A DNA stretch of 64,000 nucleotides from Verrucomicrobiia bacterium (GCA_963664225.1 OY760937.1:4512001-4576000), one strand, 5' to 3'. Shown: positions 8,646 to 26,019, numbered from the stretch's first letter. Numbers and translations are program-made. Notes: generated from the letters alone by a model not told the origin.

Positions 8646-8921
8646 TTAGCTCGATTTGTCGGCGAGATGCGCGCTGACCGCCTGGGCAATGGTGGAGACG
8701 TTTTGGAGGATCTGACGGGCGATTTCCGGACTGGGGATCTTGAGGCCGTAGGTTTTATCGAGTGCGACAACCAATTGCAGGGCGTCCACCGAGTCCAAAC
8801 CCAGGCTTCCCGGACCAAACAGGAGTTGTTCGTCGCCGATTTCGTCGTCGGTCACCTGCAGCATGAGGTTTTCCACCATCATACGCTTGATTTGCCGCTT
8901 ATAATCCAATTCCGTTTCCAT
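8646..8921 (-). CDS. acyl carrier protein (cluster-specific)
   Basis: Acidic 91 aa protein with the phosphopantetheine motif LGLDSVDAL. Confidence 0.93.
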   Translation of the reverse strand: METELDYKRQIKRMMVENLMLQVTDDEIGDEQLLFGPGSLGLDSVDALQLVVALDKTYGLKIPSPEIARQILQNVSTIAQAVSAHLADKSS

Positions 8922-9652
8922 CAGAGAATTCCACCGTCAATTTTCAGAACTGAGCCTGTGATATAGCCCGCTTCATCACAAGCCAAAAAGCGGATGGCTG
9001 CGGCGATTTCTTCGGGTTTGCCGAACCGCCGCATGGGAATGCGCGATTGCAGGGACTGACGCTCCGGGCCGGTCATTTTCGAGAGCACGTCCGTTTCGAT
9101 GTATCCTGGGCAGAGGGCGTTGACGGTGATTCCAATGCGGGCCATTTCCTTGGCCAGGGATTGGGTCAAAGCCACAACACCGGCCTTTGCGGCGGCATAG
9201 TTGGTCTGGCCTGCCGGTGGAAGCAGCGCGCTCAGGGAAGAGATGTTGATGATCCGGCCTTTGCGCTGGCTGATCATGGCGGGTAACACCGCCTGGCAAC
9301 CGTAAAAAACACCGTTGAGATTTGTGTCCAAAACCTGCCGCCAACTCGCTGGGGTCATGGTGCCCAGGAGCGCGTCATCGTGCGTCCCGGCATTGTTCAC
9401 CAGCACATCCACACGCGTGTCTGCGTCGAGTAATGCATCAACGGCGCCCTTCCATGCCTCTGGAGAGGTCACGTCCAGCGGCACGCATCGGCATCGGCCC
9501 GGATACTCGCGAGTCAGTTGATCCGCGCGTTCCCGCCGGGAACGGACGGCAAGCCAGATGGAGTTCTCCGGGCGCTCCGCAAGGAACGCCTTTGCGACTG
9601 CAATGCCCAGTCCGCCGTTGGCACCGGTAATTAAAATGACGCGTTTATTCAT
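8921..9652 (-). CDS. fabG: 3-oxoacyl-ACP reductase (FabG/ApeQ-like SDR)
   Basis: TGANGGLG, NNAG, GQTNYAAAK (YxxxK), PGYIET, GSVLKIDGG. Confidence 0.92.
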   Translation of the reverse strand: MNKRVILITGANGGLGIAVAKAFLAERPENSIWLAVRSRRERADQLTREYPGRCRCVPLDVTSPEAWKGAVDALLDADTRVDVLVNNAGTHDDALLGTMTPASWRQVLDTNLNGVFYGCQAVLPAMISQRKGRIINISSLSALLPPAGQTNYAAAKAGVVALTQSLAKEMARIGITVNALCPGYIETDVLSKMTGPERQSLQSRIPMRRFGKPEEIAAAIRFLACDEAGYITGSVLKIDGGIL

Positions 9653-10704
9653 GGGGCAGATTGGGCCGGAACCGTTGCGGGTTGAGCGCGTTCAAAACGC
9701 GCTCCAATCGCCTGTTGACTGCCGCCGACCAAACTGATGTTCACGCCAATGTATGGTCCCTGCATCAAAGCATCAACCCCGGCGACACATTGCCAGGCGG
9801 CGGCGGCCATCAAACCTTCGCCCAGGATTCGTTTCGGGCTCAGGCGCGGATTGGTCCAATCGCGCCATGCCGCCAGTTCCGGCGCGCTGGAACGGAAGCT
9901 TTCGCTGGTGCCGTCGCAGAGCAGGTCGCCGGATTGATTTGCCGGCAACTCGCTGCGCATTGACTTTACAGCGGCAGTGCGGCAAGTGTGGTGGGTCATT
10001 GAATGCGCACTGGTAATGGCGGTCAGACCGGCCCCGATGGACCAGGCGGGATTGAGACTCAAGCACAAGGCGCCGGCACCCCCGCTGAGGATTGCCGAAT
10101 GTTCCAGGTGCCACAGCGCGTCGGCCAGCAACCAGTTGGTTTCCTCGGCGCCCACCACGACGCAGGCATCGACCTGCCGGTCCTCCAGCCAATCAATCGC
10201 GAGCGAGAGTCCCTGCAGGAACGTGCCGGGATCGCCGACCAGGGTGTAAACGGACGGTGTGTCGCCCAACAAGGCGCTCACATGGCTGGCCGGCGCCGAG
10301 AAGACCGTTTCAGGAAACAGGAGCGGGCTGGCCGTGGCCGGATCCTGGAGCGCTTCCGCCCAGAACCGGGAGGAATAAAGCACACATCCGGCATTGAGAC
10401 AGGAGATCACGCCCAGACGGCAATGGGGCCCGGCAATGGATTGCACTCGGGCCACAGCTTCCAATGTGGCCGATGCGGCGTAATGCGTAATGGGACTGGC
10501 GCGCCTTAAACGTGGATGGCTGAGAAATGCGGGACGACCGATTGGCGCAGGCACCGGGCGCGATCGCAACGGCTTGCTCCAGCCGGGTCTGAGCAATGGT
10601 TCAACCGGAAGTGGAACGCCCTGACTCAATGCCTGACGCATGGCCGCCACATCCCAGCCCGCTGGTGACACTGCTCCCACGCCGCAGACAAATACCTGGC
10701 TCAT
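9649..10704 (-). CDS. ketosynthase chain-length factor (KS-like, no catalytic Cys; ApeC-like)
   Basis: KS fold (GVGAVSPAG, SPLLFPETV, VVGAEE, LGEGL). The Cys position reads LVGDPG. ATGA overlap with the KS gene. Confidence 0.85.
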   Translation of the reverse strand: MSQVFVCGVGAVSPAGWDVAAMRQALSQGVPLPVEPLLRPGWSKPLRSRPVPAPIGRPAFLSHPRLRRASPITHYAASATLEAVARVQSIAGPHCRLGVISCLNAGCVLYSSRFWAEALQDPATASPLLFPETVFSAPASHVSALLGDTPSVYTLVGDPGTFLQGLSLAIDWLEDRQVDACVVVGAEETNWLLADALWHLEHSAILSGGAGALCLSLNPAWSIGAGLTAITSAHSMTHHTCRTAAVKSMRSELPANQSGDLLCDGTSESFRSSAPELAAWRDWTNPRLSPKRILGEGLMAAAAWQCVAGVDALMQGPYIGVNISLVGGSQQAIGARFERAQPATVPAQSAP

Positions 10705-11939
10705 GGCCACCTCCGAAAAAGCAGTGTGGCGTTGATTCCACCAAACCCAAATGAGTTTGAGAGCACCACGTTCAATGTTGCATCTTGAGGTTGTCGCACC
10801 ACAGGAAAGTTGCAGGCGGGATCGGGAGTTTCAACGTCGATTTCCGGCGGCAGCCACTGTTCCCGAAGCGTCATGAGACAAACGACGGCCTCCGCTGCTC
10901 CCGCTGCGCCGAGCAAGTGCCCGACGCTGGCTTTGGTGGAACTGACTGGCAAAGTTACCGCCCGCGCGCCGGCCCAACGGTTGATGGCGGTGGCTTCGGC
11001 AGAATCGTTCAAAGGCGTTCCTGTGCCGTGGGCGTTGATATAGTCCACCTCGGCCGGCTCGATGCGGGCCGACTTGCAGGCCAGATTCATCGCCGCCAGT
11101 GCGCCGTCCCCCTGAGGATGGGGCTGGGTCAAATGATGCCTATCGATGGTCGAACCGTAACCGATGATTTCTCCCAGGATGAAGGCACCACGGCGCCTGG
11201 CATGCGGCAAGGACTCCAATGCCAGCACACCTGCTCCTTCGCCCAAAAGCAGGCCGTTGCGAGCGGCATCAAACGGACGGCATGTCGTTGGTGAAAGCAC
11301 CTGAAGCGAGTCGAAGCCCGCATAGACCATCTGGCTGTGGGCATCGTAACCCCCGGCCAAAATTCGCTCCGCATGGCCGTGGCGAATCATCTGCCAGGCG
11401 AGCCCGACCGCGTCGCTGCCCGAAGCGCAGGCGTTGGACACAATGCGCACCGGCCCAGTGAAACCCAAGGCTTCGCTGACGGCCCGGGCCTGGGTCTGCG
11501 CCTGGTAATGGAGCGCGCGGGTGGGTTGGCGACCATGGTGGCTGGGAGTTTCCACCGCCTGACGATAATAATCCTCGCCCAGGTTCATGCCGCCAGCCGT
11601 GGTTCCGAGTACGAACGGCAAATCTTCCGCAGACTGCCAACCCGATTGCTCCCAGGCTTCATGGGCGGCGAGCAGAAGCAATTTCGCCCCACGATCCAGC
11701 CGAGCCGCCTGCCGCGTGGTCAACTGGCCCATGGGGATGCTCTGTGGCAAATCCACCTCCGCGGCTAATTTGACCTTTTGGCGGCTGACATCAAAAAGAG
11801 TCACAGGGCGCGCGGTTGTGCGACCGACGCGAAAGCCCCCTGCATTGCTTTTCCAACCAATGCCCAAGGCCGAGACAATACCGGCACCGGTGATCACCAC
11901 TCTCGGCGGTTCGGCGGGTCTATTTATCGGATAGAGCAT
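10701..11939 (-). CDS. fabF: beta-ketoacyl-ACP synthase (FabF/ApeO-like)
   Basis: SNACASG (Cys), NAHGTGT, GHLLGAAG, SNSFGFGG. Intact Cys-His-His triad. Confidence 0.93.
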   Translation of the reverse strand: MLYPINRPAEPPRVVITGAGIVSALGIGWKSNAGGFRVGRTTARPVTLFDVSRQKVKLAAEVDLPQSIPMGQLTTRQAARLDRGAKLLLLAAHEAWEQSGWQSAEDLPFVLGTTAGGMNLGEDYYRQAVETPSHHGRQPTRALHYQAQTQARAVSEALGFTGPVRIVSNACASGSDAVGLAWQMIRHGHAERILAGGYDAHSQMVYAGFDSLQVLSPTTCRPFDAARNGLLLGEGAGVLALESLPHARRRGAFILGEIIGYGSTIDRHHLTQPHPQGDGALAAMNLACKSARIEPAEVDYINAHGTGTPLNDSAEATAINRWAGARAVTLPVSSTKASVGHLLGAAGAAEAVVCLMTLREQWLPPEIDVETPDPACNFPVVRQPQDATLNVVLSNSFGFGGINATLLFRRWP

Positions 11940-13245
11940 GTCGCGCAAGTTTATGTACGCTTTGGCGAAAGCCAAGGTTCATTGGGTAAAAAAGGTTCTT
12001 CCACGCGGTGGTGCCCCAGAGGCGTTTGACGATTGAGGGAATGGTATAGACCTCTTTGAGGGCGCCGAAATAGCCCCTCAGAAGTTGATCTGGAGTGAAG
12101 TGTTTTGGCTGAAACACCACATGGTTGGCGTCATAGAGGGACCAATCGCGGCTGATAATACGGCCCTCATCCTCCAGGCGTTTGTGCAGCCGCGTGCCGG
12201 GATAAGGAGTGAGAATCGAAAAATAGGCCACCTCGAGCTTGGCCTTTTCGACGAAGTCCAGGGTCCGATCGAAAACGCCCTCATCATCCGTGTCGAAACC
12301 GAAAACAAACGAACCGTCGATGCCAATGCCGTGGTCATGAATGCGATGCACCACGTCCATATAATCCTGGGGCCGGTTGACGCGTTTGCCCACCGACTCG
12401 AGGGTTTGGGACGAGAGCGTTTCGAAACCGAGAAACAGCCCCCGGCAACCGCTTTGCTGACAAAGTTTCAACAGAGCGTCGTCTTTGGCGATGTTCATTG
12501 AAGTCTGGCCGAACCATTGCAGGCCCATATCACTGATGCGGGTCAGCAGTTCGTGAGCATACGCACGATTGCTGATGATGTTGTCATCGACAAAGAAAAG
12601 GCAGTTTTTGAGAGTGAACCGGCCACCAAACGGCTCCAGACCCTGCAATTCGGACAGGACTTCCTCAATGGGGCGGTTGCGGTAACGGCCTCCAAACGCG
12701 CTGGTAACGGCGCAGAATTCACAATTAATGGGACAGCCCCGGGTGGTTTCCACAAAATGCACCGGCAGATATTTTTTGGGCCGGTAGAGATTCCAATCCG
12801 GCTGGGGCAATTCCGCCAGCGGAGGCAAATCGCCCGTGTGCTCGTAGATGGGCTCAAGCTGGTTTCGTTCCAGGTCCCGCAGCAGGCGCGGCCACAGCCC
12901 TTCGGCCTCCGCCACCACCACACTATCGCAATGCTGCAAGGCTTCCTGAGGCAGGCACGATACATGCATTCCGCCCATGACCACTTTGATCCCCTTGCGA
13001 CGAAAGTGGTCGGCAATCTCGTAACCGCGCTGCGCCGTGGTTGTCATGGTGCTGATGCCCACCAAATCAGCTTCGAGTTCCAAGTCGAGAGTTTCGACCC
13101 GCTCGTCCACCAGCGTCACATCCCAATCTGGCGGAGTAAGAGCGGCGACTTTCAACAGCCCCAGCGAGGGCATGCGAAAGAAGAAACTACCGCCCATGAG
13201 GCTGTTTTTCGCCAGAGGAGAAATGAGTAAAAGCCGCTTGTTCAT
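11920..13245 (-). CDS. cobalamin-binding radical SAM enzyme (class B methyltransferase-like)
   Basis: N-terminal B12 domain (PSLGL, DLVGIS, GGMHVS). TRGCPINCEFC motif, FVDDN, TPYPGT. ATGA overlap with the upstream rSAM gene. Confidence 0.92.
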   Translation of the reverse strand: MNKRLLLISPLAKNSLMGGSFFFRMPSLGLLKVAALTPPDWDVTLVDERVETLDLELEADLVGISTMTTTAQRGYEIADHFRRKGIKVVMGGMHVSCLPQEALQHCDSVVVAEAEGLWPRLLRDLERNQLEPIYEHTGDLPPLAELPQPDWNLYRPKKYLPVHFVETTRGCPINCEFCAVTSAFGGRYRNRPIEEVLSELQGLEPFGGRFTLKNCLFFVDDNIISNRAYAHELLTRISDMGLQWFGQTSMNIAKDDALLKLCQQSGCRGLFLGFETLSSQTLESVGKRVNRPQDYMDVVHRIHDHGIGIDGSFVFGFDTDDEGVFDRTLDFVEKAKLEVAYFSILTPYPGTRLHKRLEDEGRIISRDWSLYDANHVVFQPKHFTPDQLLRGYFGALKEVYTIPSIVKRLWGTTAWKNLFYPMNLGFRQSVHKLARHALSDK

Positions 13246-14654
13246 TTGAAAGGGCTGCTGTCGGCCCCTTGGGGCCAAAGTCGCTGGATGACTGAAAAAT
13301 AACTCCACAACGGGCCAACCACACCGCGTCGGCGCAACCGTTCGACCAGTTCGGTGTAGGCGGGTGCGGGATCGCCCACCACCCAATTGGGCGAAAGGCG
13401 GGCGAATTCACGCAACTGTTCAAACACCGCGCCATTATTCAAGCCCGGAGCCAGATAGTAGTGTGGATAGAGCAGAACTTGCGCTGGTTGAATCTGGCCC
13501 TCCACCACTGCCCGGTTGTAAAGGTCGGTTTGTGGATAGATACGCATTCCCACCACGGCCATGATCGTCGAGTCGCGAAGTTGCTTCGCATTCTCAAAGC
13601 CCTGGCGGAGGCTTGCCATGGTTTCGCCAGGACCGCCCGCGATGAGAAAGTGGCAGCAATCCATATGCGTTTTGCGGGCCAACTCCGTCGAAAACAAAAT
13701 ATCTTCGAAGCTGAATCCTTTCTGGTAGGCGTGGAGCACGTCATCGCAAAAACTATCCGAACCAAATTCGACATGGGCCAGTCCGGCACGGGCCATGAGC
13801 TGCATCAGTTCGGCAGTCAGACCTTGCGGACGCAGGAAGCAGCCCCAGGAGATTTTGACACCCCGACGAAGGATGGCTTCACAAATCTCCTCAACATGCT
13901 GTCGGGAGGAATTGAACACCGAATCGACAATGAACGCATATTTGACGTTCAAGCGCTCCAGTTGGGAAAATTCCTCGGCCACCAGTTCCGCTGGACGCCG
14001 CCGATGTCCCCGTCCCTCCACAACCGGATAGGTGCAGTAGCAGCAGCGATAGGCACAACCGCGCTGGGTTTGGACGTTGAGGACTCCGCTGGTGTTTCGA
14101 TAGCGGTCCACCACCGCAACAGGTCTGTCCGATTCCATCACCACACTGTCGAAAGGCCGTGGCTCGGGCGGATTGATCATTACCTGACCATTCTTTCGAT
14201 GAACCAGTCCTGGAATACCCTCCCAGTTTTTGCCTTCTTCAAGGCTTTGAATTAGGCGCGTCAGGCTCGATTCGCCTTCGCCAGAGATGCCAAAATCGGC
14301 TCCTGAGAGTTCGAGCAATTGGGCGGGGAATATGGTAAAGCCGCTGCCTCCAAGAATAATGCGGCGGACATTATGATGACGGATGGTGGCACAGATGGAG
14401 GGCAGATCGTCGAAGAAAGTCTGTTGTTTGCGGATGATCACATCGTCAATGTTCCGCAAGGATATGCCCACAAAATCTGGGTGAAAGGATTCGAGCGTCG
14501 CATCGAGCTGGTCGGCCTGGTCGAGAAGATCCAGCCAGAGGCATTCATGGCCGGACTGGCGCAGGGCCGCCTGCAGATAGGTCAGCCCCAAGGGAAAGAC
14601 CCGCTCGGGATTCGCACACCGGTTGGCGCTAATTAGAAGAATCCGGCTCGGCAT
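13242..14654 (-). CDS. lipid-biosynthesis B12-binding radical SAM protein (resembles TIGR04072, the ladderane-cluster family)
   Basis: ILLISAN...VFPLG, GISLRNID, GGSGF, VQTQRGCAYRCCYCTYP, VDSVFN, GMRIYPQT. Family recognised from memory. Confidence 0.85.
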   Translation of the reverse strand: MPSRILLISANRCANPERVFPLGLTYLQAALRQSGHECLWLDLLDQADQLDATLESFHPDFVGISLRNIDDVIIRKQQTFFDDLPSICATIRHHNVRRIILGGSGFTIFPAQLLELSGADFGISGEGESSLTRLIQSLEEGKNWEGIPGLVHRKNGQVMINPPEPRPFDSVVMESDRPVAVVDRYRNTSGVLNVQTQRGCAYRCCYCTYPVVEGRGHRRRPAELVAEEFSQLERLNVKYAFIVDSVFNSSRQHVEEICEAILRRGVKISWGCFLRPQGLTAELMQLMARAGLAHVEFGSDSFCDDVLHAYQKGFSFEDILFSTELARKTHMDCCHFLIAGGPGETMASLRQGFENAKQLRDSTIMAVVGMRIYPQTDLYNRAVVEGQIQPAQVLLYPHYYLAPGLNNGAVFEQLREFARLSPNWVVGDPAPAYTELVERLRRRGVVGPLWSYFSVIQRLWPQGADSSPFK

Positions 14655-14791
14655 CGTTTTTCATGCCCCAACGTTTGAATTTGATGCAATGCGCCACATC
14701 TAGGACTGAGGTTCTAGCCGTGAACACGTCCCAGGCGCAACATTAAATGGATTCTCTTCAATTATATCGGCCAATCCTGTAGATTGGGGTT

Positions 14792-15523
14792 GTGGATTCG
14801 AATTGGCCTGAAAGGGGCGCGGCTGTGGTTCCGTGCATTAACGAAGCCGCCACCATCGGAAGAGTGGTGGGCGAACTGCGCGCCTTTCTGCCGAAGGTCA
14901 TCATTGTGGACGATGGCTCGACCGATGCAACCGCCGTCATCGCGACCCAGGCAGGGGCGGGAGTGGTGCGCCATTCAAGGAACTTGGGCAAAGGGGCCGC
15001 TTTAAAGACAGGCTTTGCCGCAGCCATCGATGCGGGCGCCGAATGGGCCGTGATGCTGGACGGGGACGGTCAGCACAAGCCAATGGATATTCCCGCCATA
15101 CTAACCTGCGCACAAACCACCGGTGCGCCACTTGTGGTAGGGAATCGGATGCACGATAAGCGAGCCATTCCCTGGCTACGACGGCAGGTGAACGCAGGCA
15201 TGAGCCGCGCAATCTCGCGTCATCTCGGCCATCATCTTCCAGATACGCAGTGCGGTTTTCGATTTGTGGACCTGAAAGTGTGGCGCACGTTGTCGATCCG
15301 AAGCTGCCATTTCGAGATCGAGTCGGAGATGCTGGCGGCTTTCATTCTCGCGGGCTGCCGGGTGGAGTTTGTTCCGATTCAGGTGGTTGGGTGCGGGCCA
15401 TGCAGCCGTATTCGCCCAATTCGAGACACCTGGCGCTGGCTCAAATGGTGGGTCTCGCTCCTCAAACCTGTCGCATTCGACTTGCGCGAGAGTCCCCCGG
15501 CAGCGCATCCTCCTGCCCAATGA
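14792..15523 (+). CDS. glycosyltransferase family 2 (DPM1-like)
   Basis: VVPCINE, VDDGSTD, NLGKGAA, LDGDGQH, DTQCGFR, FEIESE. Confidence 0.92.
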   Translation: MDSNWPERGAAVVPCINEAATIGRVVGELRAFLPKVIIVDDGSTDATAVIATQAGAGVVRHSRNLGKGAALKTGFAAAIDAGAEWAVMLDGDGQHKPMDIPAILTCAQTTGAPLVVGNRMHDKRAIPWLRRQVNAGMSRAISRHLGHHLPDTQCGFRFVDLKVWRTLSIRSCHFEIESEMLAAFILAGCRVEFVPIQVVGCGPCSRIRPIRDTWRWLKWWVSLLKPVAFDLRESPPAAHPPAQ

Positions 15524-15885
15524 TACCGACTGCCTCCAGTCTCAAACCAGTGTCGGCCCGTCGTGGTTGGGCAAATCGCCTGGCACGGAAGGTCCTGTCT
15601 CTTGTGGTCGCGGGGATTGTACTGGGTTGGGCCTACGAATGGGCGGCCGTGCGTTTCTACCAGGCAGACCGTACGGCAGGTTTCTGGCACGGAACGATGC
15701 ACGGTGCGTTAATGCCCGCGGCCCTGCCGAGCCTGTTGTTGGGCAAGGACGTCCCTATTTTCGCCGGAAACAACACAGGGCGCACTTACAAACTTGGCTA
15801 CATCACCGGTATTAACGCCTGCGGATTGCTCTTCTTTGGCCTGGCCTTCCGAAATCCAAAATCGACCACCGACCCAGAGGCGTAG
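15520..15885 (+). CDS. small hypothetical membrane protein, translationally coupled to GT2
   Basis: ATGA overlap at 15520-15523. Hydrophobic helices with GFWHG..HG and YKLGY..G motifs. Confidence 0.7.
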   Translation: MIPTASSLKPVSARRGWANRLARKVLSLVVAGIVLGWAYEWAAVRFYQADRTAGFWHGTMHGALMPAALPSLLLGKDVPIFAGNNTGRTYKLGYITGINACGLLFFGLAFRNPKSTTDPEA

Positions 15886-15900
15886 GAACTGGCGATTCGT

Positions 15901-16635: not shown

Positions 16636-16674
16636 GCTTGCGGCAGACTCTAGCGATTGATTAGGAAGGTGTAA

Positions 16675-18012
16675 ATGCTGTTCAACCTATGGAGCGAAAT
16701 CGCCCGCCATCACGCCAGTGAACCGGCCCTTTGGGACCTGACTGCCGGTCGGCGATGGAGCTTTCGAGACTTGGCCGAAGCGGCTGAGAGATCCGGCCCC
16801 GTTACTCAACCCATGGTCCACCCGACTTTTCGTTCCCTGACGGAACAAGGCCTGCGAGAGAGATCCGGCCCCGTTACTCAACCCATGGTCCACCCCCAGG
16901 GAAACGGCGCGGAATTCATCCTGACCGTTTTACGGGCCTGGCGGGACGGAGTCGTGGTCTGTCCATTGGAACCCTATCAAACCCCGCCGCCGATACCCCA
17001 GCCACCTGACGGCTGCAAGCATCTGAAGTTAACGTCGGCCACTTCTGGCGCGGCGAGAATGATTGCCTTCACGGAAGAGCAGTTGGCTGCAGACGCCATT
17101 AATATCGTTCAAACGATGGGATTGCGGCCTGAGTGGCCGAATCTGGGTGCAATCTCAATGGCCCATTCTTACGGATTCTCAAACCTCGTGTTGCCACTCT
17201 TGCTGCACGGAATTCCGCTCATCCTCGCGCCATCCGCGCTGCCCGAGATGGTCCGTCGTGCCGCTGCAGATCACCCCTTCGTGACACTGGCGGGGGTGCC
17301 GGCGCTGTGGAGGGCCTGGCACGAGTCCGGAGCCATTCCGGCCAACGTTGCGCTGGCCATCTCAGCGGGTGCGCCTCTTTCCATTGAGCTGGAGCGGGCG
17401 GTGCATTCGGGCTGCGGTCTGAAAATCCATAATTTCTACGGTTCGTCCGAATGCGGCGGGATTGCCTACGACGACACCACGACGCCCCGCGTTGAGGAAG
17501 GTCTAGTTGGGCGTGCCATGCGGAATGTGGATTTGTCTTTGACCAATCAAGGCTGTCTCGAGGTTCGCAGCCGGGCCGTGGGAGAAACCTATTGTCCGGA
17601 AATGAACGAGTCCCTGGGAAACGGGCGTTTTCAAACGAGCGACCTTGCAGAATTTCATAACGGCGCGCTTTATTTGCGTGGACGACTCGGCGATCTCATT
17701 AACGTGGCCGGCCGCAAAGTCTCACCCGGAGCCATCGAACAGGTCCTGCGGGGTCATCCCGCCGTAAAGGAATGCCTCGTTTTTGGCGCGCCCGATGTGC
17801 AAGGCGAGCGGACGGATCGCATTGTGGCGTGCGTGGTGGCCAATGGCAGCGGACTGGCGAATGCTGAGCCTCTCCGGCAGTTTCTGCTGCGCAGCCTGCC
17901 CGCCTGGCAGATGCCCCGGGACTGGTGGTTTGTGGATTCTTTAAGTCCCAACAGCCGGGGTAAAATCTCCCGTGCGGAATGGAGACAGCGATACATCACG
18001 CGCCAGGAATAG
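16675..18012 (+). CDS. class I adenylate-forming enzyme (acyl-CoA/acyl-ACP ligase, ApeH-like)
   Basis: LTSATSG, HSYG, SAGAPL, YGSSECG, FQTSDLA, GRLGDLINVAGRKV, GKISR. Confidence 0.88.
   Translation: MLFNLWSEIARHHASEPALWDLTAGRRWSFRDLAEAAERSGPVTQPMVHPTFRSLTEQGLRERSGPVTQPMVHPQGNGAEFILTVLRAWRDGVVVCPLEPYQTPPPIPQPPDGCKHLKLTSATSGAARMIAFTEEQLAADAINIVQTMGLRPEWPNLGAISMAHSYGFSNLVLPLLLHGIPLILAPSALPEMVRRAAADHPFVTLAGVPALWRAWHESGAIPANVALAISAGAPLSIELERAVHSGCGLKIHNFYGSSECGGIAYDDTTTPRVEEGLVGRAMRNVDLSLTNQGCLEVRSRAVGETYCPEMNESLGNGRFQTSDLAEFHNGALYLRGRLGDLINVAGRKVSPGAIEQVLRGHPAVKECLVFGAPDVQGERTDRIVACVVANGSGLANAEPLRQFLLRSLPAWQMPRDWWFVDSLSPNSRGKISRAEWRQRYITRQE
16786..16895 (+). repeat. perfect 38 bp direct repeat (16786-16823, 16858-16895) around a 34 bp spacer, in frame within the ligase gene
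   Basis: GAGAGATCCGGCCCCGTTACTCAACCCATGGTCCACCC occurs twice. The peptide ERSGPVTQPMVHP is duplicated. Confidence 0.95.
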
Positions 18013-18084
18013 TGCGTTGCATCGTTGCATCGGGGCACAGTTTCCCCACTTGACGAATGGGTTCTTTAAGGGAAGTGTCTTTAA

Positions 18085-18459
18085 ATGAATAAGTGCCATA
18101 TCTTTTCGCTGGCTGCGGTGTCCGCAACGTTGCTGCTCGTGGGTTGTGTCAATACTCCAATAGATCCCAGTGCGGAGCGCGGTCCCCAAGGCACCATTCT
18201 TTATGAGGTCAAGGTGGAGGCCAGCGATCCGGGCACCAAGATCGAGGCGAACGGAGATTATGTTGGTCAGGCCCCGTGCGTTATTAAGATTTATGGCGAC
18301 CCTGACGGCACATTCCATAATTTCGGCCGATACGATTACACCATCAGGGCGTTCCCAGGCAATTCCAGTCTTCATGAGAAGGTGAAAGTGTTCCGCACTG
18401 GCGGCTGGTTTACACCAGAAGACCTGATTCCCAAACGGATCTATTTCGATATGAAATAA
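18085..18459 (+). CDS. small lipoprotein with a PEGA-like domain
   Basis: Lipobox LLVGC. SDPGTKIEANGDYVGQAP resembles the PEGA S-P-GA-v-vdG--vG-tP pattern. Confidence 0.7.
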   Translation: MNKCHIFSLAAVSATLLLVGCVNTPIDPSAERGPQGTILYEVKVEASDPGTKIEANGDYVGQAPCVIKIYGDPDGTFHNFGRYDYTIRAFPGNSSLHEKVKVFRTGGWFTPEDLIPKRIYFDMK

Positions 18460-18507
18460 CCGACGTGCGGACCGGCTGAAGGTTTCGCACGATGACGCCC
18501 TGAAATC

Positions 18508-18939
18508 TCAAGGCGCGCCGCTCAATGTGAGATCGGCCTGCAGGACGAGTTGATCACCGACAAATCCCCTGGCGTGCGCCTGAACAAGGCTCCCCATGCG
18601 GCCTGTCAATTGAGCTTCAAGGCGCAGCACTTCTCCGGGGCGGGCTGTGCCTAGAATTTTAACCCCGCGCAATGCGGTCAGCTTCAGCCCTGCGAGCGGC
18701 GGTGTAATGGGATCGCTCTGGGTTATCACTCCAGCCAATTGGGCGGCGGCTTCCACCAGCAGCACGCCAGGAAATATTGGTTCCCCCGGGAAATGACCTT
18801 TCAGGAACGGTTCGTCTCCGCGAACCCGGTATTCTCCCACGCCTTCCCTGCCGGGGATCAGGCTTAAAAGCCGGTCCAGAAACCGGAACTCAGGGCCGTG
18901 TGGCAGAGTTTTGAGCGCCGCTTCCAGAACATTCTCCAT
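18508..18939 (-). CDS. fabZ: 3-hydroxyacyl-ACP dehydratase (FabA/FabZ hotdog fold, ApeI-like)
   Basis: LPHGPEFRFLD, GHFPGEPIFPGVLLVE, RPGE. Confidence 0.9.
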   Translation of the reverse strand: MENVLEAALKTLPHGPEFRFLDRLLSLIPGREGVGEYRVRGDEPFLKGHFPGEPIFPGVLLVEAAAQLAGVITQSDPITPPLAGLKLTALRGVKILGTARPGEVLRLEAQLTGRMGSLVQAHARGFVGDQLVLQADLTLSGAP

Positions 18940-18943
18940 ACTC

Positions 18944-19624
18944 TTACTTCTTGAGCGGTTCGACCAACTTGGTGTCCGCGTCGAGTTGAACCTCGAACAG
19001 GTCCTTGGGCAATGCCGTGTTCAAAACGGAATGACTGAAATCATTGCGCATGCTGGAGCCATCGCTGAACTGGAGTTCTGTCGAGGATGGCGAGTAGTCC
19101 TTCGTGCTAAAACTGATTTGGAGCTGGCTCATGAACTTTCGCGCAAAGGCGCTTTTGGGCTGAAGGGACAATTGCACAATGTCGTTGGTTTGCACGACCG
19201 ATAAGACGGTGAAGCGCGATTCCAACTCGGCTCGGCTGCGGGGAAAGCTGGCCTCCAGAAGAGCCAGCGCGTCACGCCAGGGGCCGGGAGCGTTTCCGGT
19301 CAGGGGATATTTCTCGGCTCGCTTGAGCTTGGGATACAAAAGCCACAATTGATCAGGCTGGCGCACCGCGATCGTTTGCGGAGGCTGGCCCAGCTCCCAA
19401 CGAAAGTGGTCAGGCACCACGACCCACACCTTGCCGGTCGAAACCAGTGGCTGGGAAAATGTTTTGATCGAACGCGTTTGAACCGCATCAGCAGTCCAAG
19501 TGTGGACGTTGGTCTGCGCGGCGAACCATTGATCCAATAGGGCACTGGTATCGGCCGCCTTGACTGCAGAGTTTCCAACCAACAGAAAACCCAGCAACAC
19601 GGACAGAAACCGTGACACCTTCAT
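18944..19624 (-). CDS. LolA-like periplasmic carrier (ApeL-like)
   Basis: Signal peptide. Q-T-R...STGKVWVVVPDHFRWEL LolA pattern. ATGA overlap with the MMPL gene. Confidence 0.85.
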   Translation of the reverse strand: MKVSRFLSVLLGFLLVGNSAVKAADTSALLDQWFAAQTNVHTWTADAVQTRSIKTFSQPLVSTGKVWVVVPDHFRWELGQPPQTIAVRQPDQLWLLYPKLKRAEKYPLTGNAPGPWRDALALLEASFPRSRAELESRFTVLSVVQTNDIVQLSLQPKSAFARKFMSQLQISFSTKDYSPSSTELQFSDGSSMRNDFSHSVLNTALPKDLFEVQLDADTKLVEPLKK

Positions 19625-22600
19625 AAAGGGGTGGGAGTATTCCCATTGGCTCGATTGCCGCTGGACGCTTTTGCAATCAGCGATGCCTTTGACCAAATTG
19701 GAACAAAATGAAACCATTGGTCCAAATGCTGCCGAATCCGCGGCTCGAATGCACGCAGGATTTGTCGGGTGAGTTCATGCCGGGCTTCCCGGTTGCCCAG
19801 GGTTGCGCGGTCATATTGAAATTCTTGAAACACCTGGGCGAGGTAGCGGCCGTCGGGGCAGCGTAAAACAGTAACCCCGAAAAGGGCGCAACCGGAGGCC
19901 CGCGCCAGTTCGGCTGGTGCGATGGAGGCTTGAAATGGCCTGCCAAAAAGTTCCACCTCGACAGCGCTGGACGGTTGAGGTCGATCCACCAGCAACGCAA
20001 TGATCGCACCTTCCTGCAATCGGCGGATGACATCGACGAAGCCGAACGCGTTGTTGCCAATGACCAGCGTTTCGATCCCCCATCTGGCTCGCGAGGTCCG
20101 GCGCAACTCGGTCAATCCTTCGCCCGGTTCGGCCTGTGTGATGACCAGCAAATTAATTCCATGCTCCCTGAGCAAAAGCGCGCCCACTTCCCAATTTCCC
20201 AGATGAGGCGTCAGGAGTAATACGCCCCGACCCTTTTTTTGAATGTCTGCCAGGGCCGCGGTGGAAATGGCTTCTGTGTTGGTCTGTGGATTGGAAGCGG
20301 CGGCTGTATCAGAGCTTTGAGGACTGTCCACAAATGCGATGGCGGAGGAAATGCCATTTTCAAACCTCCACAAATCCAGAAGTTTTAGCGCAAATTGTTG
20401 ATATAGTCGGCGAGCTGTTCCCTCAGCGCGCTTGCGATCCCCGCCAACCGCAGGCAATAAGTTCTCAATCACCACTTCACGCCTCGGGCGATCCAGCCGG
20501 AAATGAGCCGCCGCCAATACCAGGCAAAACTGTCGGACCAACACCAGCGGCATCATTCGGGTCAGCAGCATCCCCAAGCGCCACAGCCAGGCCCGATACA
20601 AAGCGGAAGGTTTCGTTGGCAGATCGGAGTGTGGAGCGGGGCACTGTTCCGGTAAATCTGTCCGGTTAATGGTCCTACACCACCAGGTGGGCAGCAGGTA
20701 GATCGAGATGAGCATGTTGGCCAATATGCCCATGGCGCAGACCTTGCCCAGACTGGCCATGCCCACATTCGCTGACCACGCCAGGGAACCGAAACCGGCA
20801 ATGGCGGTGCCGCCGCAGAGCAAAAGCGCCCGGCCTATGGAGTTGCGCACCATCGCCACATCTCCTCCATGCCGACGCAGGCCAAGTTGGATGAAAATGC
20901 CATAATCCACCCCGGTGCCCAGAATCAAAGGCAACGCCATTAAGTTGAGCAGATTCCATGTCCATCCGTTCAATACCATGAATGCCAGCAAACACAGGCC
21001 CGAGAGCAGGAGCACCGCAACGCCCAGCAGCACCTCACGAACATTTCGGAAGGCCAGCCACAATGATACCAGCACCAGCGCCACCATGGGCAGTACCACA
21101 AGCCACAGCCGGTCTTTGACGCGTGCCAGTGTCACAGTGCCCAGCAGCGGCCAACCCGACAGGGAAATATGTGCTTTTTCAAACTCATCCGCCAATCGGA
21201 CCAGGCCCGTGTCGGAAACTTGATTGGTGGAGGGATAAACAAGGCCCAGGGCCAGCCATTGATTTGTGGAATGGGCGACAAAACGTTTGAGCAGCCATTG
21301 ACTCATCTGGTTGGTGGGCCACGACACTCCGTTACCGGCGCCCAGTCGCTCCCAGGTTCTCAACAGTTCATCCGTTAGGAATAATGCGTTGGTATTGAAT
21401 CCCTCATGCAAGGCCGCCTCCCGCAAAGGCGTCTCCTGACCTGACAGCCAAAGCGCTGCCGGACGGTTGGCCTCCTGGTTGGCCACGTGCGGCCACAACG
21501 GCGTGGGAATCATATAACCGCTGATTTGCTGGTTGGAACTGGCCCGCGCCAGCAAAGCTTCCGCCCGGCTGAGTTGCTCATACACTTCCGATTCGGTCCG
21601 GCCTGATGCAATCGTCCAGAGCGGATCCTGAGGGATGCCGACCGCCGAAGAGATTTCATCGAGCGCCACCTCCGCTTCTGTGTGCTGGAGCCGAAGTGCG
21701 TCCCCGGAGCGATCCACACCGGGCAAGCCCCGCACAAGTCCCAAAGCCGCCACTAAAATCACCGCCCCGGTCACCAGCAGCCCAATGCGGCAACACCGCG
21801 TCGGCGGATTCCCAGCCCACACGATTCGCTCCGGCGGGGGTGGAAAGAGAAAAGTAATCAACCGGGGACGTGCAATGCCGGGGGGCAGTTGGCGGCGTTT
21901 TGGAAAGAGTGGCGGCAGAAACGCCACCACCATGACCAAGGCCGCCAGGCTCACCCCAATGGCCACCAGCGATCCCAATTGCGCAAGACCGGGCAGGCCG
22001 CCAAAGCTCAACATCAGGAATGCGGCTATGGTTGTGATGGCCGCCCAAAGGATGCTCGGTGAAATGGCGCGACGGATTTCTGGAACGGTTAGTTGCGGAT
22101 GAGCCAGGGCCTCCTGGTAATGGACCACGGCGTAGTCCACGGCCAACCCGAGCAACACCGCTGCGAATCCCAGGCTGATCACGTTGATGGTTCCCAGGAG
22201 AAGACTCCCCAGCCCCAAGGTCGCCACCAGGATGAGTCCCAAGAGCGTCAGCAGCCAGAGCATTGGAAGCCAGCGCCGGTGCGTCAGCCAGAATAGCAGC
22301 GCAATGATGATGGCGGTGCCAATAATCGACCCGCTCAAATCCCGTTGCATGCTCGACGCAATCTCCGCCACAAACGCCGGTCGGCCCGTGTAGCGAATCG
22401 TCACGTCCCGCCATTCGGATTTCTGTGCGCGCGTCTCCTCAACGGTCCGACGAATCGCCTCCAGCCAGTCCACGCAGGCGCGATAGCCGGCCAATGCGGG
22501 GCGAGCCTGGAGAAACACCAATCGAAAAGTGCCGTCGGAGGAGCCAAACATCTGCTGGCCTTGATCGGCGGACATGCCGCTGAAATTCGCCAGTGTCGGT

Positions 22601-23091
22601 AGGTTCAACAGATCGTAGGGATCGAACGCGCGCCGGGCGATGTCCATGGGTGAGAGGGAGGTGGCCAAAGCCTCTCGGGACTCCCCGAGGACCGTGGCGC
22701 GATGGGCAGGCGACAGACGATTGGTCAGGGCGTTGAACACTTCTGGCGGTTGGTTGAACCACAGATATGCAACGATCTCAGCGGCCTGGGCTGGCTGCTC
22801 CATCCAGGGCGGTTGCCAGGAGACTTCGGTAACCAGATTGGTCTGCGGACGCAAACGGGTTGCCAATTCCGCAGCCAGGCTTTCGGTTGTTTCACCGGAC
22901 GGCGCGCGCAAGGTAATGATTAACTCGCGGGCATTGGCAAAATGCTCCTGGTAGAGTTTCAATCCCTGCACGCTGGGAATGTCGGGCGGCAGGAGGTTCA
23001 GGACATCGACGTCGAATCGCAGACGGCCCAACCCAAGCAGCACCAGAACCGCAAGCGGCAGCCACCACCATTTTTTAAACAGCGCACTCAC
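19621..23091 (-). CDS. MMPL/RND-family exporter fused to a C-terminal LpxL/HtrB-type acyltransferase
   Basis: Two TM bundles with GLAVDYAVV and GTGVDYGIF. The C-terminal ~320 aa contain TPHLGNWE, LLVDR, VELFGR, QWFHFVPIW. Confidence 0.88.
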   Translation of the reverse strand: MSALFKKWWWLPLAVLVLLGLGRLRFDVDVLNLLPPDIPSVQGLKLYQEHFANARELIITLRAPSGETTESLAAELATRLRPQTNLVTEVSWQPPWMEQPAQAAEIVAYLWFNQPPEVFNALTNRLSPAHRATVLGESREALATSLSPMDIARRAFDPYDLLNLPTLANFSGMSADQGQQMFGSSDGTFRLVFLQARPALAGYRACVDWLEAIRRTVEETRAQKSEWRDVTIRYTGRPAFVAEIASSMQRDLSGSIIGTAIIIALLFWLTHRRWLPMLWLLTLLGLILVATLGLGSLLLGTINVISLGFAAVLLGLAVDYAVVHYQEALAHPQLTVPEIRRAISPSILWAAITTIAAFLMLSFGGLPGLAQLGSLVAIGVSLAALVMVVAFLPPLFPKRRQLPPGIARPRLITFLFPPPPERIVWAGNPPTRCCRIGLLVTGAVILVAALGLVRGLPGVDRSGDALRLQHTEAEVALDEISSAVGIPQDPLWTIASGRTESEVYEQLSRAEALLARASSNQQISGYMIPTPLWPHVANQEANRPAALWLSGQETPLREAALHEGFNTNALFLTDELLRTWERLGAGNGVSWPTNQMSQWLLKRFVAHSTNQWLALGLVYPSTNQVSDTGLVRLADEFEKAHISLSGWPLLGTVTLARVKDRLWLVVLPMVALVLVSLWLAFRNVREVLLGVAVLLLSGLCLLAFMVLNGWTWNLLNLMALPLILGTGVDYGIFIQLGLRRHGGDVAMVRNSIGRALLLCGGTAIAGFGSLAWSANVGMASLGKVCAMGILANMLISIYLLPTWWCRTINRTDLPEQCPAPHSDLPTKPSALYRAWLWRLGMLLTRMMPLVLVRQFCLVLAAAHFRLDRPRREVVIENLLPAVGGDRKRAEGTARRLYQQFALKLLDLWRFENGISSAIAFVDSPQSSDTAAASNPQTNTEAISTAALADIQKKGRGVLLLTPHLGNWEVGALLLREHGINLLVITQAEPGEGLTELRRTSRARWGIETLVIGNNAFGFVDVIRRLQEGAIIALLVDRPQPSSAVEVELFGRPFQASIAPAELARASGCALFGVTVLRCPDGRYLAQVFQEFQYDRATLGNREARHELTRQILRAFEPRIRQHLDQWFHFVPIWSKASLIAKASSGNRANGNTPTPL

Positions 23092-23588
23092 GGCGAGAGA
23101 AACCCTTCGATGCTCTCACCGGAATTGGTGTTTTGAAGAATCCAGCCGCCATCGGGTTTGCGTTCAAAGAGGAACGCCTTGGGAAGCGGTTTGCCTTCCA
23201 GCGCTGCCCCCAAATAGAGCCAGGTGAAACGCAAGGGAGGTTGTCCCTTGCCTCCAAAGCTGTATCGCTGCGCCGGAAACTGTATGAGCCAGTTGGTCGA
23301 TGTGGTATGGCCCATCGTGATCGGCAGGGGCGTTTTTTCAAAGTCGAAGATATAACTTCCATTCTCATGGCGGGCGACCAGGAGATCGCCGCCCAGTTCG
23401 GGTCGGTTGCGACTTGGCCGCCACACAGCCTGCCCATTCAGCACCCGCCAGCCAGGACCCGCTGTGGAAATTCGTGAGGCATCTCCGAATGTGCGACATC
23501 CCGTGGTAAAAACCACCAGAACCAATAATGCCACACCACAGAGACCCAAAAACAACCGCATGCAGCGCAATCCCATAGGTCTGGCCAT
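23088..23588 (-). CDS. hypothetical lipoprotein upstream of MMPL (positional counterpart of ApeN)
   Basis: Lipobox FTTGC. GTGA overlap with the MMPL start. Start codon uncertain (23588 or 23561). Confidence 0.7.
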   Translation of the reverse strand: MARPMGLRCMRLFLGLCGVALLVLVVFTTGCRTFGDASRISTAGPGWRVLNGQAVWRPSRNRPELGGDLLVARHENGSYIFDFEKTPLPITMGHTTSTNWLIQFPAQRYSFGGKGQPPLRFTWLYLGAALEGKPLPKAFLFERKPDGGWILQNTNSGESIEGFLSP

Positions 23589-25941: not shown

Positions 25942-26019
25942 GGGCAATTAATAACAAACAATCTGGAGATTGTGTTCTCCACGTTGTCAACGTGCCAAAC
26001 AAATCCATGGAAATCAACC
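25880..26019. repeat. copy 1 of a ~135 bp duplicated leader segment with dyad ACAATCT-GG-AGATTGT
   Basis: Aligns with 29885-30013. Identical 25 bp core TAACAAACAATCTGGAGATTGTGTT at 25952-25976. Confidence 0.85.

Follow-up and report, generated by a model that had tools for sequence, protein, structure and literature searches.

Gene content and organization of the cluster

We analysed a window of 64,000 nucleotides (nt) from the genome of a Verrucomicrobiia bacterium (G000:C1:4512001-4576000; GCA_963664225.1 OY760937.1:4512001-4576000), a single-contig (closed) genome of 5.78 Mb that is 96% complete. The subject of the analysis is a cluster of 14 genes at positions 8646-23588, which combines enzymes of acyl-chain synthesis with B12-binding radical S-adenosylmethionine (SAM) enzymes and genes for lipid transport. 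The cluster genes were defined by open reading frame (ORF), Pfam and NCBIfam scans, with 53 window ORFs scanned against Pfam (20 + 33), and they form one conserved block in which genes are co-oriented or translationally coupled. An earlier interpretation of this DNA, made without database searches (the sequence-only reading), had listed an acyl carrier protein (ACP), FabG, a chain-length factor (CLF), a beta-ketoacyl-ACP synthase (KS), two B12-radical SAM enzymes (here rSAM1 and rSAM2), a family 2 glycosyltransferase (GT2), an adenylate ligase, FabZ, a LolA-like carrier, an MMPL protein and a lipoprotein. All of these were recovered by the ORF, Pfam and NCBIfam searches where that reading had placed them. 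Its inventory fell short by two genes, a membrane ORF of 121 amino acids (aa) and a 244-aa DUF8321/DUF8322 gene, both of which had been overlooked. The 14 genes are as follows.

8646-8921, minus strand: dedicated ACP, 91 aa, with an LGLDS phosphopantetheine site (Pfam PP-binding 9.4e-7; best NCBIfam match PRK09184, below cut-off)
8921-9652, minus strand: FabG/ApeQ-like 3-oxoacyl-ACP reductase (Pfam adh_short_C2 2.8e-57; NCBIfam NF009466, 231 bits, cut-off 222)
9649-10704, minus strand: CLF-like inactive KS partner, 351 aa, ATG at 10704 (no Pfam match at 0.01)
10701-11939, minus strand: KS of the active type, 412 aa, start ATG at 11939 (Pfam ketoacyl-synt N- and C-terminal domains)
11920-13245, minus strand: rSAM1, B12-binding radical SAM protein, 441 aa, ATG at 13245, CxxxCxxC motif (Pfam B12-binding, Radical_SAM and DUF4070)
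13242-14654, minus strand: rSAM2, B12-binding radical SAM protein, 470 aa (B12-binding and Radical_SAM; TIGR04072 member)
14792-15523, plus strand: GT2 of the polyprenyl-phosphate-sugar synthase type, PpgS/AglJ/DPM1-like (Pfam Glycos_transf_2 1e-22)
15520-15885, plus strand: small membrane protein, 121 aa, two to three hydrophobic segments (hydropathy; ATGA-coupled to GT2)
15901-16635, minus strand: DUF8321/DUF8322 protein, 244 aa, cytoplasmic (Atlas match 0.99 to DUF8321/DUF8322 clusters)
16675-18012, plus strand: adenylate-forming ligase, 445 aa, in the ApeH position (Pfam AMP-binding and AMP-binding_C)
18508-18939, minus strand: FabZ-like 3-hydroxyacyl-ACP dehydratase (Pfam FabA 7e-18; NCBIfam FabZ 4e-23, below cut-off; PDB FabZ structures 2e-15)
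18944-19624, minus strand: LolA-like periplasmic carrier with a signal peptide, ATG at 19624 (Pfam LolA 3.9e-13; NCBIfam LolA2_flexi 8e-13)
19621-23091, minus strand: MMPL/RND (HpnN-like) transporter with a C-terminal LpxL-type domain, 1156 aa (Pfam MMPL 1e-26; HpnN 1e-52)
23088-23588, minus strand: LolB-fold lipoprotein, 166 aa, start at 23588, lipobox FTTGC (structure model and lipobox)

The minus-strand genes include two operons, rSAM2-rSAM1-KS-CLF-FabG-ACP running from 14654 to 8646 and lipoprotein-MMPL/LpxL-LolA-FabZ running from 23588 to 18508. Many overlapping start and stop codons had been described, and six gene pairs are indeed coupled in this way, by ATGA at CLF/FabG, KS/CLF, rSAM2/rSAM1, GT2/small membrane ORF and MMPL/LolA (where the LolA start at 19624 overlaps the MMPL stop) and by GTGA at lipoprotein/MMPL. 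FabG and ACP share TGATG, and the KS start lies within the end of rSAM1 by 20 nt. Homologue lengths and alignments place the starts of rSAM1, KS, CLF, LolA and the lipoprotein downstream of the longest-ORF starts; that of rSAM1 was fixed because its homologues at 71-96% identity are 433-456 aa long. As a whole the cluster has five transcription units of alternating orientation, with divergent spacers of 137 bp (14654-14792) and 39 bp (16635-16675), and this alternation is preserved in related loci. No Rfam family reached its gathering score anywhere in the window, and a search for RNA sequencing runs covering 9000-18900 listed none.

Judging from this gene content and the comparisons below, we consider it fairly probable that the product of the cluster is a tailored acyl lipid destined for the outer membrane, made by a type II fatty-acid/polyketide pathway of an aryl-polyene-like, 'ladderane-type' kind.

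An active ketosynthase with a triad-less partner

The KS keeps the Cys-His-His triad in alignments. The CLF had been described as lacking the active-site Cys; in fact the whole triad is replaced (Cys to Pro, His to Asp and His to Glu), and the same Pro/Asp/Glu residues occupy these columns in 5/5 aligned verrucomicrobial orthologues. At Pfam E values up to 10 the CLF matches ketoacyl-synt only, sub-threshold, and its sole sequence relative in the PDB is 9s5h_C (E 1.5e-5). Chain B of the same entry is the second-best PDB match of the KS (2e-78), after 1j3n (1e-86), with ApeO 6qsp_A at 2.5e-53. The entry 9s5h comprises two 3-oxoacyl-ACP synthase chains, and from the molecule names and the timing, with no linking citation, we infer that it is the anammox amxFabF2/amxFabFmut heterodimer of bioRxiv 10.64898/2026.05.19.726425; a literature search on the code 9S5H returned unrelated papers only. 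The KS and CLF of the window are predicted to form a heterodimer.

A KS phylogeny had been suggested earlier as a way of placing the cluster relative to aryl polyene, ladderane-cluster and FabF clades. In a tree of 24 rows, the window KS groups with five verrucomicrobial orthologues in one clade (95/95). This clade is nested in a 14-row clade (100/99) that also holds E. coli ApeO and, from loci of Jettenia, Brocadiaceae, Nitrospira and deltaproteobacteria, the KS1 that has a CLF as its partner. The two FabF-type KS genes located elsewhere in the genome, 0.4 and 1.3 Mb distant, and ApeR fall outside the 14-row clade. ApeO appears as sister of the window KS clade (94/94), and this placement is unsure because its branch is very long (3.8).

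Comparison with aryl polyene and flexirubin clusters

The sequence-only reading had pointed out that the gene set parallels aryl polyene (APE) clusters, and this is borne out by blastp against the 18 proteins of the E. coli CFT073 ape cluster. The ACP is 39% identical to ApeE, FabG 34% to ApeQ, the GT2 32% to the N-terminal domain of ApeJ, and the KS 38% to ApeO over 314 aa and 34% to ApeR, while the MMPL protein matches ApeM at 23% (E 1.5e-7). Weak matches connect FabZ with ApeI, LolA with ApeL, the ligase with ApeH, and the LpxL-type domain with the C-terminal part of ApeJ (22%, E 0.004). The CLF is a triad-less KS partner with no blastp match to ApeC; nor was any match to the CFT073 ape proteins found for the lipoprotein (compared with ApeN), the 244-aa protein or the small ORF. 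In the reverse direction, blastp gave no counterpart in the cluster for ApeA, ApeB, ApeD, ApeG, ApeK or ApeP.

At the level of gene functions, the cluster shares with APE clusters (CFT073 apeA-R and Xenorhabdus doucetiae) a type II KS with a CLF-like partner, ketoreductase, dehydratase and dedicated ACP, a ligase in the starter position, a GT2, an LpxL-like acyltransferase function, an MMPL exporter, a LolA-like carrier and a LolB-like lipoprotein. APE clusters have two KS (ApeO and ApeR), two ACPs (including ApeF) and two dehydratases (ApeI and ApeP), whereas the window cluster has one of each. The acyltransferase is fused to MMPL in the window cluster and to the GT2 in ape (ApeJ), and the DUF8321/8322 gene for a putative papain-like protein and the two B12-radical SAM genes are additions relative to ape. 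Because ApeB, ApeK, ApeR, ApeP, ApeD and the second ACP lack counterparts, this is not a standard ape cluster. The absences listed in the sequence-only reading also stand: among the 53 window ORFs, Pfam reveals no ApeB-type methyltransferase, second KS, second dehydratase, ammonia-lyase or FabH/DarB-like gene, and an ApeK thioesterase is absent from the cluster, the sole thioesterase-like gene of the window being of the FlK type and located 14 kb outside it (37753-38181).

Flexirubin and xanthomonadin-type clusters are relatives of APE clusters. In a comparison limited to NCBIfam models, FabG matches FlxB (2e-63) and LolA matches LolA2_flexi, both below cut-off, and a halogenase-like gene is present in the sister cluster of another genome of the order (G056, described below). 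Unlike flexirubin and xanthomonadin-type clusters, the window has no tyrosine ammonia-lyase, DarAB or chorismatase-type gene.

The cluster could also encode a conventional aryl polyene pigment pathway: the pigment would have an aromatic starter and a polyene tail and be anchored in the outer membrane, and one or both B12-radical SAM enzymes would replace ApeB for C-methylation of the ring or polyene. We regard this as rather unlikely. It draws on the position of ApeO next to the window KS clade (94/94), the pairwise homology to ApeE, ApeQ, ApeO, ApeJ and ApeM, and the LolA/LolB-like pair with FlxB and LolA2_flexi among the model matches. It would also agree with the methylation of aromatic ring carbons carried out by TsrM and BzaD, the best characterised relatives of rSAM2, with the halogenase-family enzyme and SAM methyltransferase of the G056 sister cluster, as halogenated or methylated aryl polyenes would need, and with the 4-chlorobenzoate- and benzoate-CoA ligases among the PDB relatives of the ligase. 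Against this, core ape genes (as listed in 10.1101/2020.12.19.423268) are missing, there being one KS, one ACP and one dehydratase and neither ApeK nor ApeD; no window gene for aromatic acid synthesis was found; the ligase resembles ApeH weakly; and the ApeO branch of 3.8 leaves its position unsure.

Predicted transport, acyl transfer, glycosyl transfer and starter activation

In the APE lipid model, the APE is esterified to an N-acetylgalactosamine (GalNAc)-phosphate-glycerolipid, ApeD and ApeJ are the acyl- and glycosyltransferases, and ApeM, ApeL (LolA-like) and ApeN (LolB-like) provide transport (10.1101/2020.12.19.423268). By analogy, this model would map well onto the transport half of the window cluster. 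The MMPL protein and the lipoprotein proposed earlier are both real genes, but two of their properties had been missed. Residues 832-1133 of the MMPL protein, which has 11 hydrophobic segments, are a Lip_A_acyltrans (LpxL-type) domain (Pfam, 4.3e-22), with lipid A lauroyl- and phosphatidylinositol mannoside (PIM)-acyltransferase models among its NCBIfam matches. Its orthologues in L128, L131, L132 and L033 are fusions too; G022 has the two parts split. The lipoprotein, for its part, matches nothing in Pfam at E up to 10 and has a lipobox Cys that is invariant in 10 sequences. Its AlphaFold2 (AF2) model (predicted local distance difference test, pLDDT, 84.9) matches LolB 1iwm_A in VIA with a Z of 9.9 and a root-mean-square deviation of 3.0 over 117 residues, and in Foldseek with E 5.4e-4; LolA and LolB structures occupy the top ranks. 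The modelled lipoprotein has the LolB fold, which would put it in the role of ApeN.

The 244-aa protein also matches nothing in Pfam at E up to 10. C53, H181 and D201 are invariant in 11 sequences, and C53 is located at the N-terminus of a helix. With its AF2 model (pLDDT 76.8), the top VIA rows are cysteine peptidases (papain-like, C39 and related) at weak Z values of 5-7.1, and Foldseek gave no match at E <= 0.001 (best E 0.058). We hold loosely to the view that it is probably a papain-like Cys-His-Asp hydrolase or acyltransferase.

For the GT2, the best NCBIfam match is PpgS (polyprenyl-phospho-GalNAc synthase, 4.8e-33), followed by AglJ (3e-29), both below cut-off, and ArnC (3.9e-8); we treat the PpgS match as a lead. 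The small membrane ORF coupled to it had no Pfam match at E 10 and matched no flippase family, and the Atlas gives only unnamed Verrucomicrobiota clusters. The GT2 and LpxL-type matches raise the question of remodelling of lipid A/lipopolysaccharide (LPS) or another envelope glycolipid, with the LpxL-type domain adding the chain and the GT2 and small protein acting in an ArnC/flippase-like manner on a polyprenyl-phosphate sugar. The Lip_A_acyltrans domain with its lipid A and PIM acyltransferase matches, the similarity of the GT2 to polyprenyl-phosphate sugar synthases including ArnC, and its coupling to a small membrane protein would all suit such a function. We nevertheless find it extremely unlikely: the cluster lacks a GT-C/ArnT-like transferase as well as further lipid A genes, no flippase family is matched by the small membrane protein, and the LolA/LolB-like pair with MMPL corresponds to an APE-type route rather than the Lpt route.

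Relatives of the ligase are only generic acyl, aryl or benzoate-CoA ligases, including 4-chlorobenzoate-CoA ligase (NCBIfam, PDB), and tblastn of the ligase against plasmids gave generic adenylate-forming enzymes only, with no ape-type context. The ligase gene contains a perfect 38-nt direct repeat (16786-16823 and 16858-16895, spacing 72 nt) that corresponds to an in-frame duplication of 24 codons in the N-terminal domain, so that SGPVTQPMVHP occurs twice. The duplication is absent from orthologues, which are 418-438 aa long versus 445 aa here. Tandem Repeats Finder reported nothing at 16600-17100, and the repeat was revealed by a separate repeat search.

The two B12-radical SAM enzymes belong to different families

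rSAM2 matches NCBIfam TIGR04072 ('lipid biosynthesis B12-binding/radical SAM protein', rSAM_ladder_B12) at 388.5 bits over model positions 1-439/443, against a cut-off of 360, and is the only gene in the genome over this cut-off (387.9 bits in the genome-wide scan). Its other NCBIfam matches are BzaD (7e-61) and the TsrM type (6e-42), and its nearest solved structure is that of TsrM (6wte, 2.9e-33), a tryptophan C2-methyltransferase. rSAM1 reaches 73.7 bits against TIGR04072, under the cut-off of 360, and no NCBIfam model over cut-off, which places it in a different family from rSAM2. The nearest solved structure to rSAM1 is 9ccb (4e-20), that of the glutamine C-methyltransferase QCMT.

A scan of genome contigs with rSAM1 yielded 80 loci. 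Identity is 65-79% in Verrucomicrobiota contigs and 59-64% in deltaproteobacterial, Nitrospirota, Dissulfurispiraceae, Thermodesulfovibrionales, Geobacteraceae and Pelobacter contigs and in two anammox genomes (Brocadiaceae and Jettenia, 61-62%), with the remaining groups at 32-49%. Some rSAM1-like contigs or proteins (L045, L073 and P0003) that are 74-86% identical to verrucomicrobial rSAM1 carry the labels Candidatus Acidoferrum, Bifidobacteriaceae and Bacillota; mis-binning of verrucomicrobial DNA, rather than transfer, is the probable cause.

Both enzymes most likely are optional tailoring enzymes, and C-methylases are the most likely type given their sequence relatives. For cobalamin-dependent C-methylation as the reaction itself we see about an even chance. 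It is favored because both nearest characterised relatives are C-methylases, because the corresponding slot of the sister cluster described below is occupied by a SAM methyltransferase and a halogenase, and because the base pathway can do without the radical SAM genes; their optional presence in the cluster family likewise favors a tailoring role. The methyl branching, cyclopropanation or cyclisation put forward in the sequence-only reading would be candidate modifications, and an aryl-polyene-like scaffold would be compatible with these data. The single-contig genome has at least nine matches to the B12-radical SAM model and no match to CbiC or CbiB/CobD, and the organism probably relies on imported cobalamin, as far as its gene content indicates.

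A common base pathway with a variable tailoring slot

Co-conservation in relatives had been set beforehand as a test of the cluster, and many Verrucomicrobiota contigs carry these genes with order and orientation unchanged; the arrangement is therefore not due to chance. We fetched 20 loci of the verrucomicrobial type via rSAM1 (L040-L055 and L073-L076), many of which are cut by contig ends or by the 10-kb flank. Nine cluster genes occur together in 7/20 loci, and the individual genes are distributed among the 20 as follows.

rSAM2, adjacent to rSAM1: 19 (not L048)
KS and CLF: 19 (not L043)
ACP: 13
FabG: 12
Small membrane ORF: 10
Ligase: 9
244-aa gene: 9
GT2: 7
MMPL-LpxL: 6
FabZ: 4
LolA: 4
Lipoprotein: 2

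We then surveyed 150 other genomes of the same order; these are kin and partly incomplete, and the counts describe nesting rather than independent statistics. The 244-aa gene was found in 80/150 and the CLF in 70/150, with both in 65, only one in 20 and neither in 65. Orthologues of rSAM2 (49-72% identity) are present in 18/150 genomes, of which 18/18 have the 244-aa gene and 16/18 the CLF. rSAM1 orthologues (61-73%) are found in 7/150, all among the 18 with rSAM2. Weaker, paralogue-like matches were seen in eight genomes for rSAM2 (34-37%) and in 15 for rSAM1 (36-44%). None of the four markers is present in G001, a genome of the same genus that is 93% complete.

Individual loci show what this nesting looks like at the level of gene order. 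The complete order from the lipoprotein through the ACP is found in L128 and L131. L128 (G135) and L129 (G097) are colinear clusters with rSAM2 and without rSAM1. Between rSAM2 and KS, L129 (G097:C97) has at 13217-13408 a match to the N-terminus of rSAM1 (57% over 66 residues), possibly a deletion remnant. L131 (G056) is a whole cluster without any B12-radical SAM gene; between its KS and small membrane ORF (G056:C4, 4953-9126) are genes for a Trp-halogenase-family flavoprotein of 527 aa, a non-B12 radical SAM protein of 354 aa and a SAM methyltransferase of 252 aa. L132 and L133 have the transport half with no KS/CLF nearby. Because of these variants and the marker counts, the base pathway is common in the order, and the slot from GT2 to KS is where its tailoring genes vary.

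In other genomes the parts are arranged less compactly. G015 has all parts, with ~14 kb of unrelated genes between the halves, and looks like two joined contig ends. A second copy of rSAM2 (53% identity) is found in a different neighborhood in L023 (G019:C113, 831-9446), in the order GT2, polysaccharide deacetylase, B12-radical SAM protein of 525 aa, 239-aa ORF, rSAM2, 315-aa ORF, LpxL-like acyltransferase and hexapeptide transferase.

These distributions also bear on whether two neighbouring systems might have come together by chance, a widespread verrucomicrobial lipid-export/acylation module (ligase, DUF8321/8322, FabZ, LolA, MMPL-LpxL and the LolB-like lipoprotein) and an independent radical SAM module with a product that would not be exported through it. 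The numbers alone might suggest so, given that the 244-aa marker is in 80/150 genomes versus 18 for rSAM2 and seven for rSAM1, that the radical SAM genes of G019, G022 and G029 are away from the transport genes, and that the second rSAM2 of G019 has another neighborhood. However, every genome with rSAM2 (18/18) or rSAM1 (7/7) carries the 244-aa marker; the insertion point of the radical SAM genes is exactly the GT2-KS interval of the base cluster, and in the window they overlap the KS frame; the CLF, representing the KS/CLF/FabG/ACP set, and the transport marker tend to be present or absent together (65 both and 65 neither of 150); and L129 keeps its rSAM1 remnant at the exact position. A chance juxtaposition is improbable on this evidence.

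Relation to ladderane-type and anammox clusters

Clusters called 'ladderane' by antiSMASH are reported in Verrucomicrobia, with product and function unknown in the passages that describe them (PMC7298704, PMC9902471 and PMC11968836), and our literature search, with subscription journals outside its coverage, returned no paper assigning a product to such clusters. The sequence-only reading had presented the locus as a candidate new pathway. This does not hold, since rSAM2 passes TIGR04072, verrucomicrobial 'ladderane' calls are already in print, and both radical SAM enzymes have homologues in loci resembling the anammox 'Cluster II'. By its gene content, the window cluster is a verrucomicrobial variant of the already catalogued 'ladderane-type' clusters of unsolved chemistry, not a newly seen type of pathway.

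Loci of the Cluster II type, in Jettenia, Brocadiaceae, Nitrospira and deltaproteobacteria, have an rSAM1 orthologue (61-64%) near a KS (41-45%) and CLF (23-32%). In Jettenia and Nitrospira the order is LpxL-type acyltransferase, LolA, VTT, SPASM radical SAM, rSAM1 orthologue, ATP-grasp, polysaccharide deacetylase, KS and CLF, followed by a methyltransferase (Jettenia only), more KS genes and an AMP-ligase (Jettenia). The best rSAM2 homologue (34-36%) is directly downstream on the same contig. Comparing their sequences and neighborhoods, the best anammox homologues of both radical SAM enzymes sit in a Cluster II-like locus, not in Cluster I, which is now favored for ladderane synthesis; a second tier at 29-30% is found elsewhere.

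'Ladderane-type' clusters of non-anammox bacteria and Cluster II-like loci (Kuste3335-3352 type; TIGR04072 neighborhoods) have in common with the window a TIGR04072 member, KS/CLF pairs, an LpxL-type acyltransferase, LolA, an AMP-ligase and, in some, MMPL, and it is with their KS1 that the window KS groups. They differ in having a SPASM radical SAM protein, ATP-grasp, polysaccharide deacetylase, VTT/DedA, SAM methyltransferase and extra KS genes (L067 and L059), in place of which the window has the GT2 with the small membrane protein, the DUF8321/8322 gene and the LolB-fold lipoprotein. Cluster I (KustE3603-3608) consists of amxACP, amxFabZ, amxFabF2/amxFabFmut, a phytoene-dehydrogenase-like gene (PDH) and a B12-radical SAM gene. 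The window shares with it an ACP, FabZ, a KS with a triad-less partner and a B12-radical SAM gene, and the window CLF and KS match chains C and B of 9s5h, which appears to be the Cluster I heterodimer. The 53 window ORFs contain no amine-oxidase/phytoene-desaturase domain that would correspond to PDH. The triad substitutes also differ, being Pro/Asp/Glu in the window CLF versus Val or Thr with Asn/Glu/Cys as given for Cluster I (10.64898/2026.05.19.726425).

These parallels invite the proposal that the cluster makes true ladderanes (concatenated cyclobutanes) or related cyclised lipids, with ring formation by the B12-radical SAM enzymes on an ACP-bound polyunsaturated chain, following the proposal for anammox bacteria. 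Consistent with it are the TIGR04072 membership of rSAM2, the match of CLF and KS to the 9s5h chains (taken as the anammox KS/CLF pair), the 61-62% identity of rSAM1 to Brocadiaceae/Jettenia proteins, and a plausible polyene intermediate, as no enoyl reductase is encoded; reviews, where they deal with the subject, give the radical SAM chemistry of ladderanes as unknown (PMC13459092 and PMC12931638). We judge it highly improbable all the same. The anammox homologues are in a Cluster II-like locus rather than Cluster I, and the same type of locus is present in Nitrospira, Thermodesulfovibrionales and deltaproteobacteria; Rattray et al. describe such synteny in Desulfotalea psychrophila and, in that account, ladderanes were not detected there (PMC2649909). 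The window has no phytoene-desaturase-like gene. Finally, in colinear clusters the radical SAM genes are optional or replaced, which fits decoration of a chain better than formation of its scaffold.

A proposed pathway for a tailored outer-membrane lipid

We return to the aryl-polyene-like pathway for a tailored outer-membrane lipid; the steps, substrates, anchor and destination set out here are proposals built on the genes described above. The adenylate ligase would activate a carboxylic-acid starter, aromatic or fatty, and load it onto the dedicated ACP, and the KS/CLF heterodimer with FabG and FabZ would elongate the chain iteratively. The Pfam scan found no enoyl reductase gene in the cluster, so the chain would probably be (poly)unsaturated, unless a housekeeping reductase steps in; an unsaturated chain is probably also what the analogy to APE and other highly reducing type II systems predicts. 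rSAM2, and then rSAM1 in some clusters, may tailor the ACP-bound chain or head group, either by C-methylation or else by another radical C-C or C-H transformation. The LpxL-type domain fused to MMPL, possibly together with the putative papain-like DUF8321/8322 enzyme, would move the chain onto a lipid or sugar-phosphate-lipid anchor prepared by the PpgS-like GT2 and its small membrane partner. The MMPL protein, LolA-like carrier and LolB-fold lipoprotein would then deliver the product to the outer membrane.

A more specific version of this pathway, which we advance only tentatively, is that rSAM2 acts first and rSAM1, found only with rSAM2, acts second on the ACP-bound polyenoyl or acyl chain of an aryl-polyene-like outer-membrane lipid, giving an undescribed class of C-methyl-branched or radical-cyclised polyene lipids.

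Several observations weigh against the proposed pathway or parts of it. For the 244-aa protein the fold match reaches a Z of 7.1 at best, which is weak and under the safe level of the tool. The ligase resembles ApeH weakly (24%, E 1e-5 in an 18-protein database), its other relatives being generic. The similarity of both radical SAM enzymes to known methylases is remote, and the non-methylases HpnJ, BchE and AprD4 score in the same range (NCBIfam); moreover, given that CbiC and CbiB had no match, the radical SAM steps would need imported cobalamin. As for the gene neighborhoods, L043, L044, L045, L047 and L054 are without the ligase module despite having 8-10 kb of sequence upstream of rSAM2, L048 has rSAM1 without an adjacent rSAM2, and in G019, G022 and G029 the radical SAM and transport genes are on different contigs or far apart. 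Since the related genomes are kin, the co-occurrence counts overstate independence.

'Ladderane' clusters are routinely called by genome mining in Verrucomicrobia, Desulfobacterota, Nitrospirota and other phyla, and the window provides a complete, compact example on a closed genome. In our comparison, such clusters have as their base a probable outer-membrane lipid pathway of the aryl-polyene-like kind, carried by roughly half of the sampled species of the order. The B12-radical SAM genes are optional, nested add-ons in a variable slot, and their closest anammox homologues are in a locus common to non-ladderane bacteria. It argues against taking such clusters as evidence of ladderanes beyond anammox bacteria. 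New in this analysis are the APE-type transport assignment with its predicted LolB fold, the MMPL-acyltransferase fusion, the DUF8321/8322 protein as a candidate enzyme, the placement of both radical SAM enzymes with anammox Cluster II-type rather than Cluster I genes, and the nested variants with zero, one or two radical SAM genes. Because these variants occur naturally, the chemistry is directly testable by mass shifts, B12 dependence and methyl labelling. If the two radical SAM enzymes do act in sequence as suggested, this verrucomicrobial system would for the first time open a tractable way into the chemistry of the radical SAM enzymes that have long been suspected of a part in making ladderane-related lipids.

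Neighbouring genes and other features of the window

One further ORF lies within the boundaries of the cluster, between the ligase and FabZ.

18085-18459, plus strand: embedded lipoprotein ORF, 124 aa, lipobox LLVGC

This ORF is probably not part of the cluster, as tblastn found no match to it in any related locus. Its match to PEGA is weak (E 0.02), as is that to the ApeN N-terminus (E 7e-4 in the 18-protein database), the latter in an alignment that takes in the signal peptides. Three flanking ORFs were dropped as cluster members because they are present in no related locus: an Ig-domain ORF (6513-8465), a 718-aa ORF (23791-25947), which matches nothing in Pfam even at E up to 10, and a DeoC-like ORF (25972-26994). 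All four of these ORFs are found in 0/20 of the loci fetched via rSAM1.

The Ig-domain ORF at 6513-8465 (minus strand) is secreted-looking and has eukaryote-type immunoglobulin domains (Ig_3 3.7e-23 and I-set 3.2e-21). A second ORF of this type is located at 30121-31371 (minus strand; Ig_3 3.4e-11 and I-set 1.5e-9), and neither is conserved with the cluster. At 38386-39597 (plus strand), an FGE-sulfatase (formylglycine-generating-enzyme-like) domain and a C-terminal cytochrome c domain are combined in one protein.

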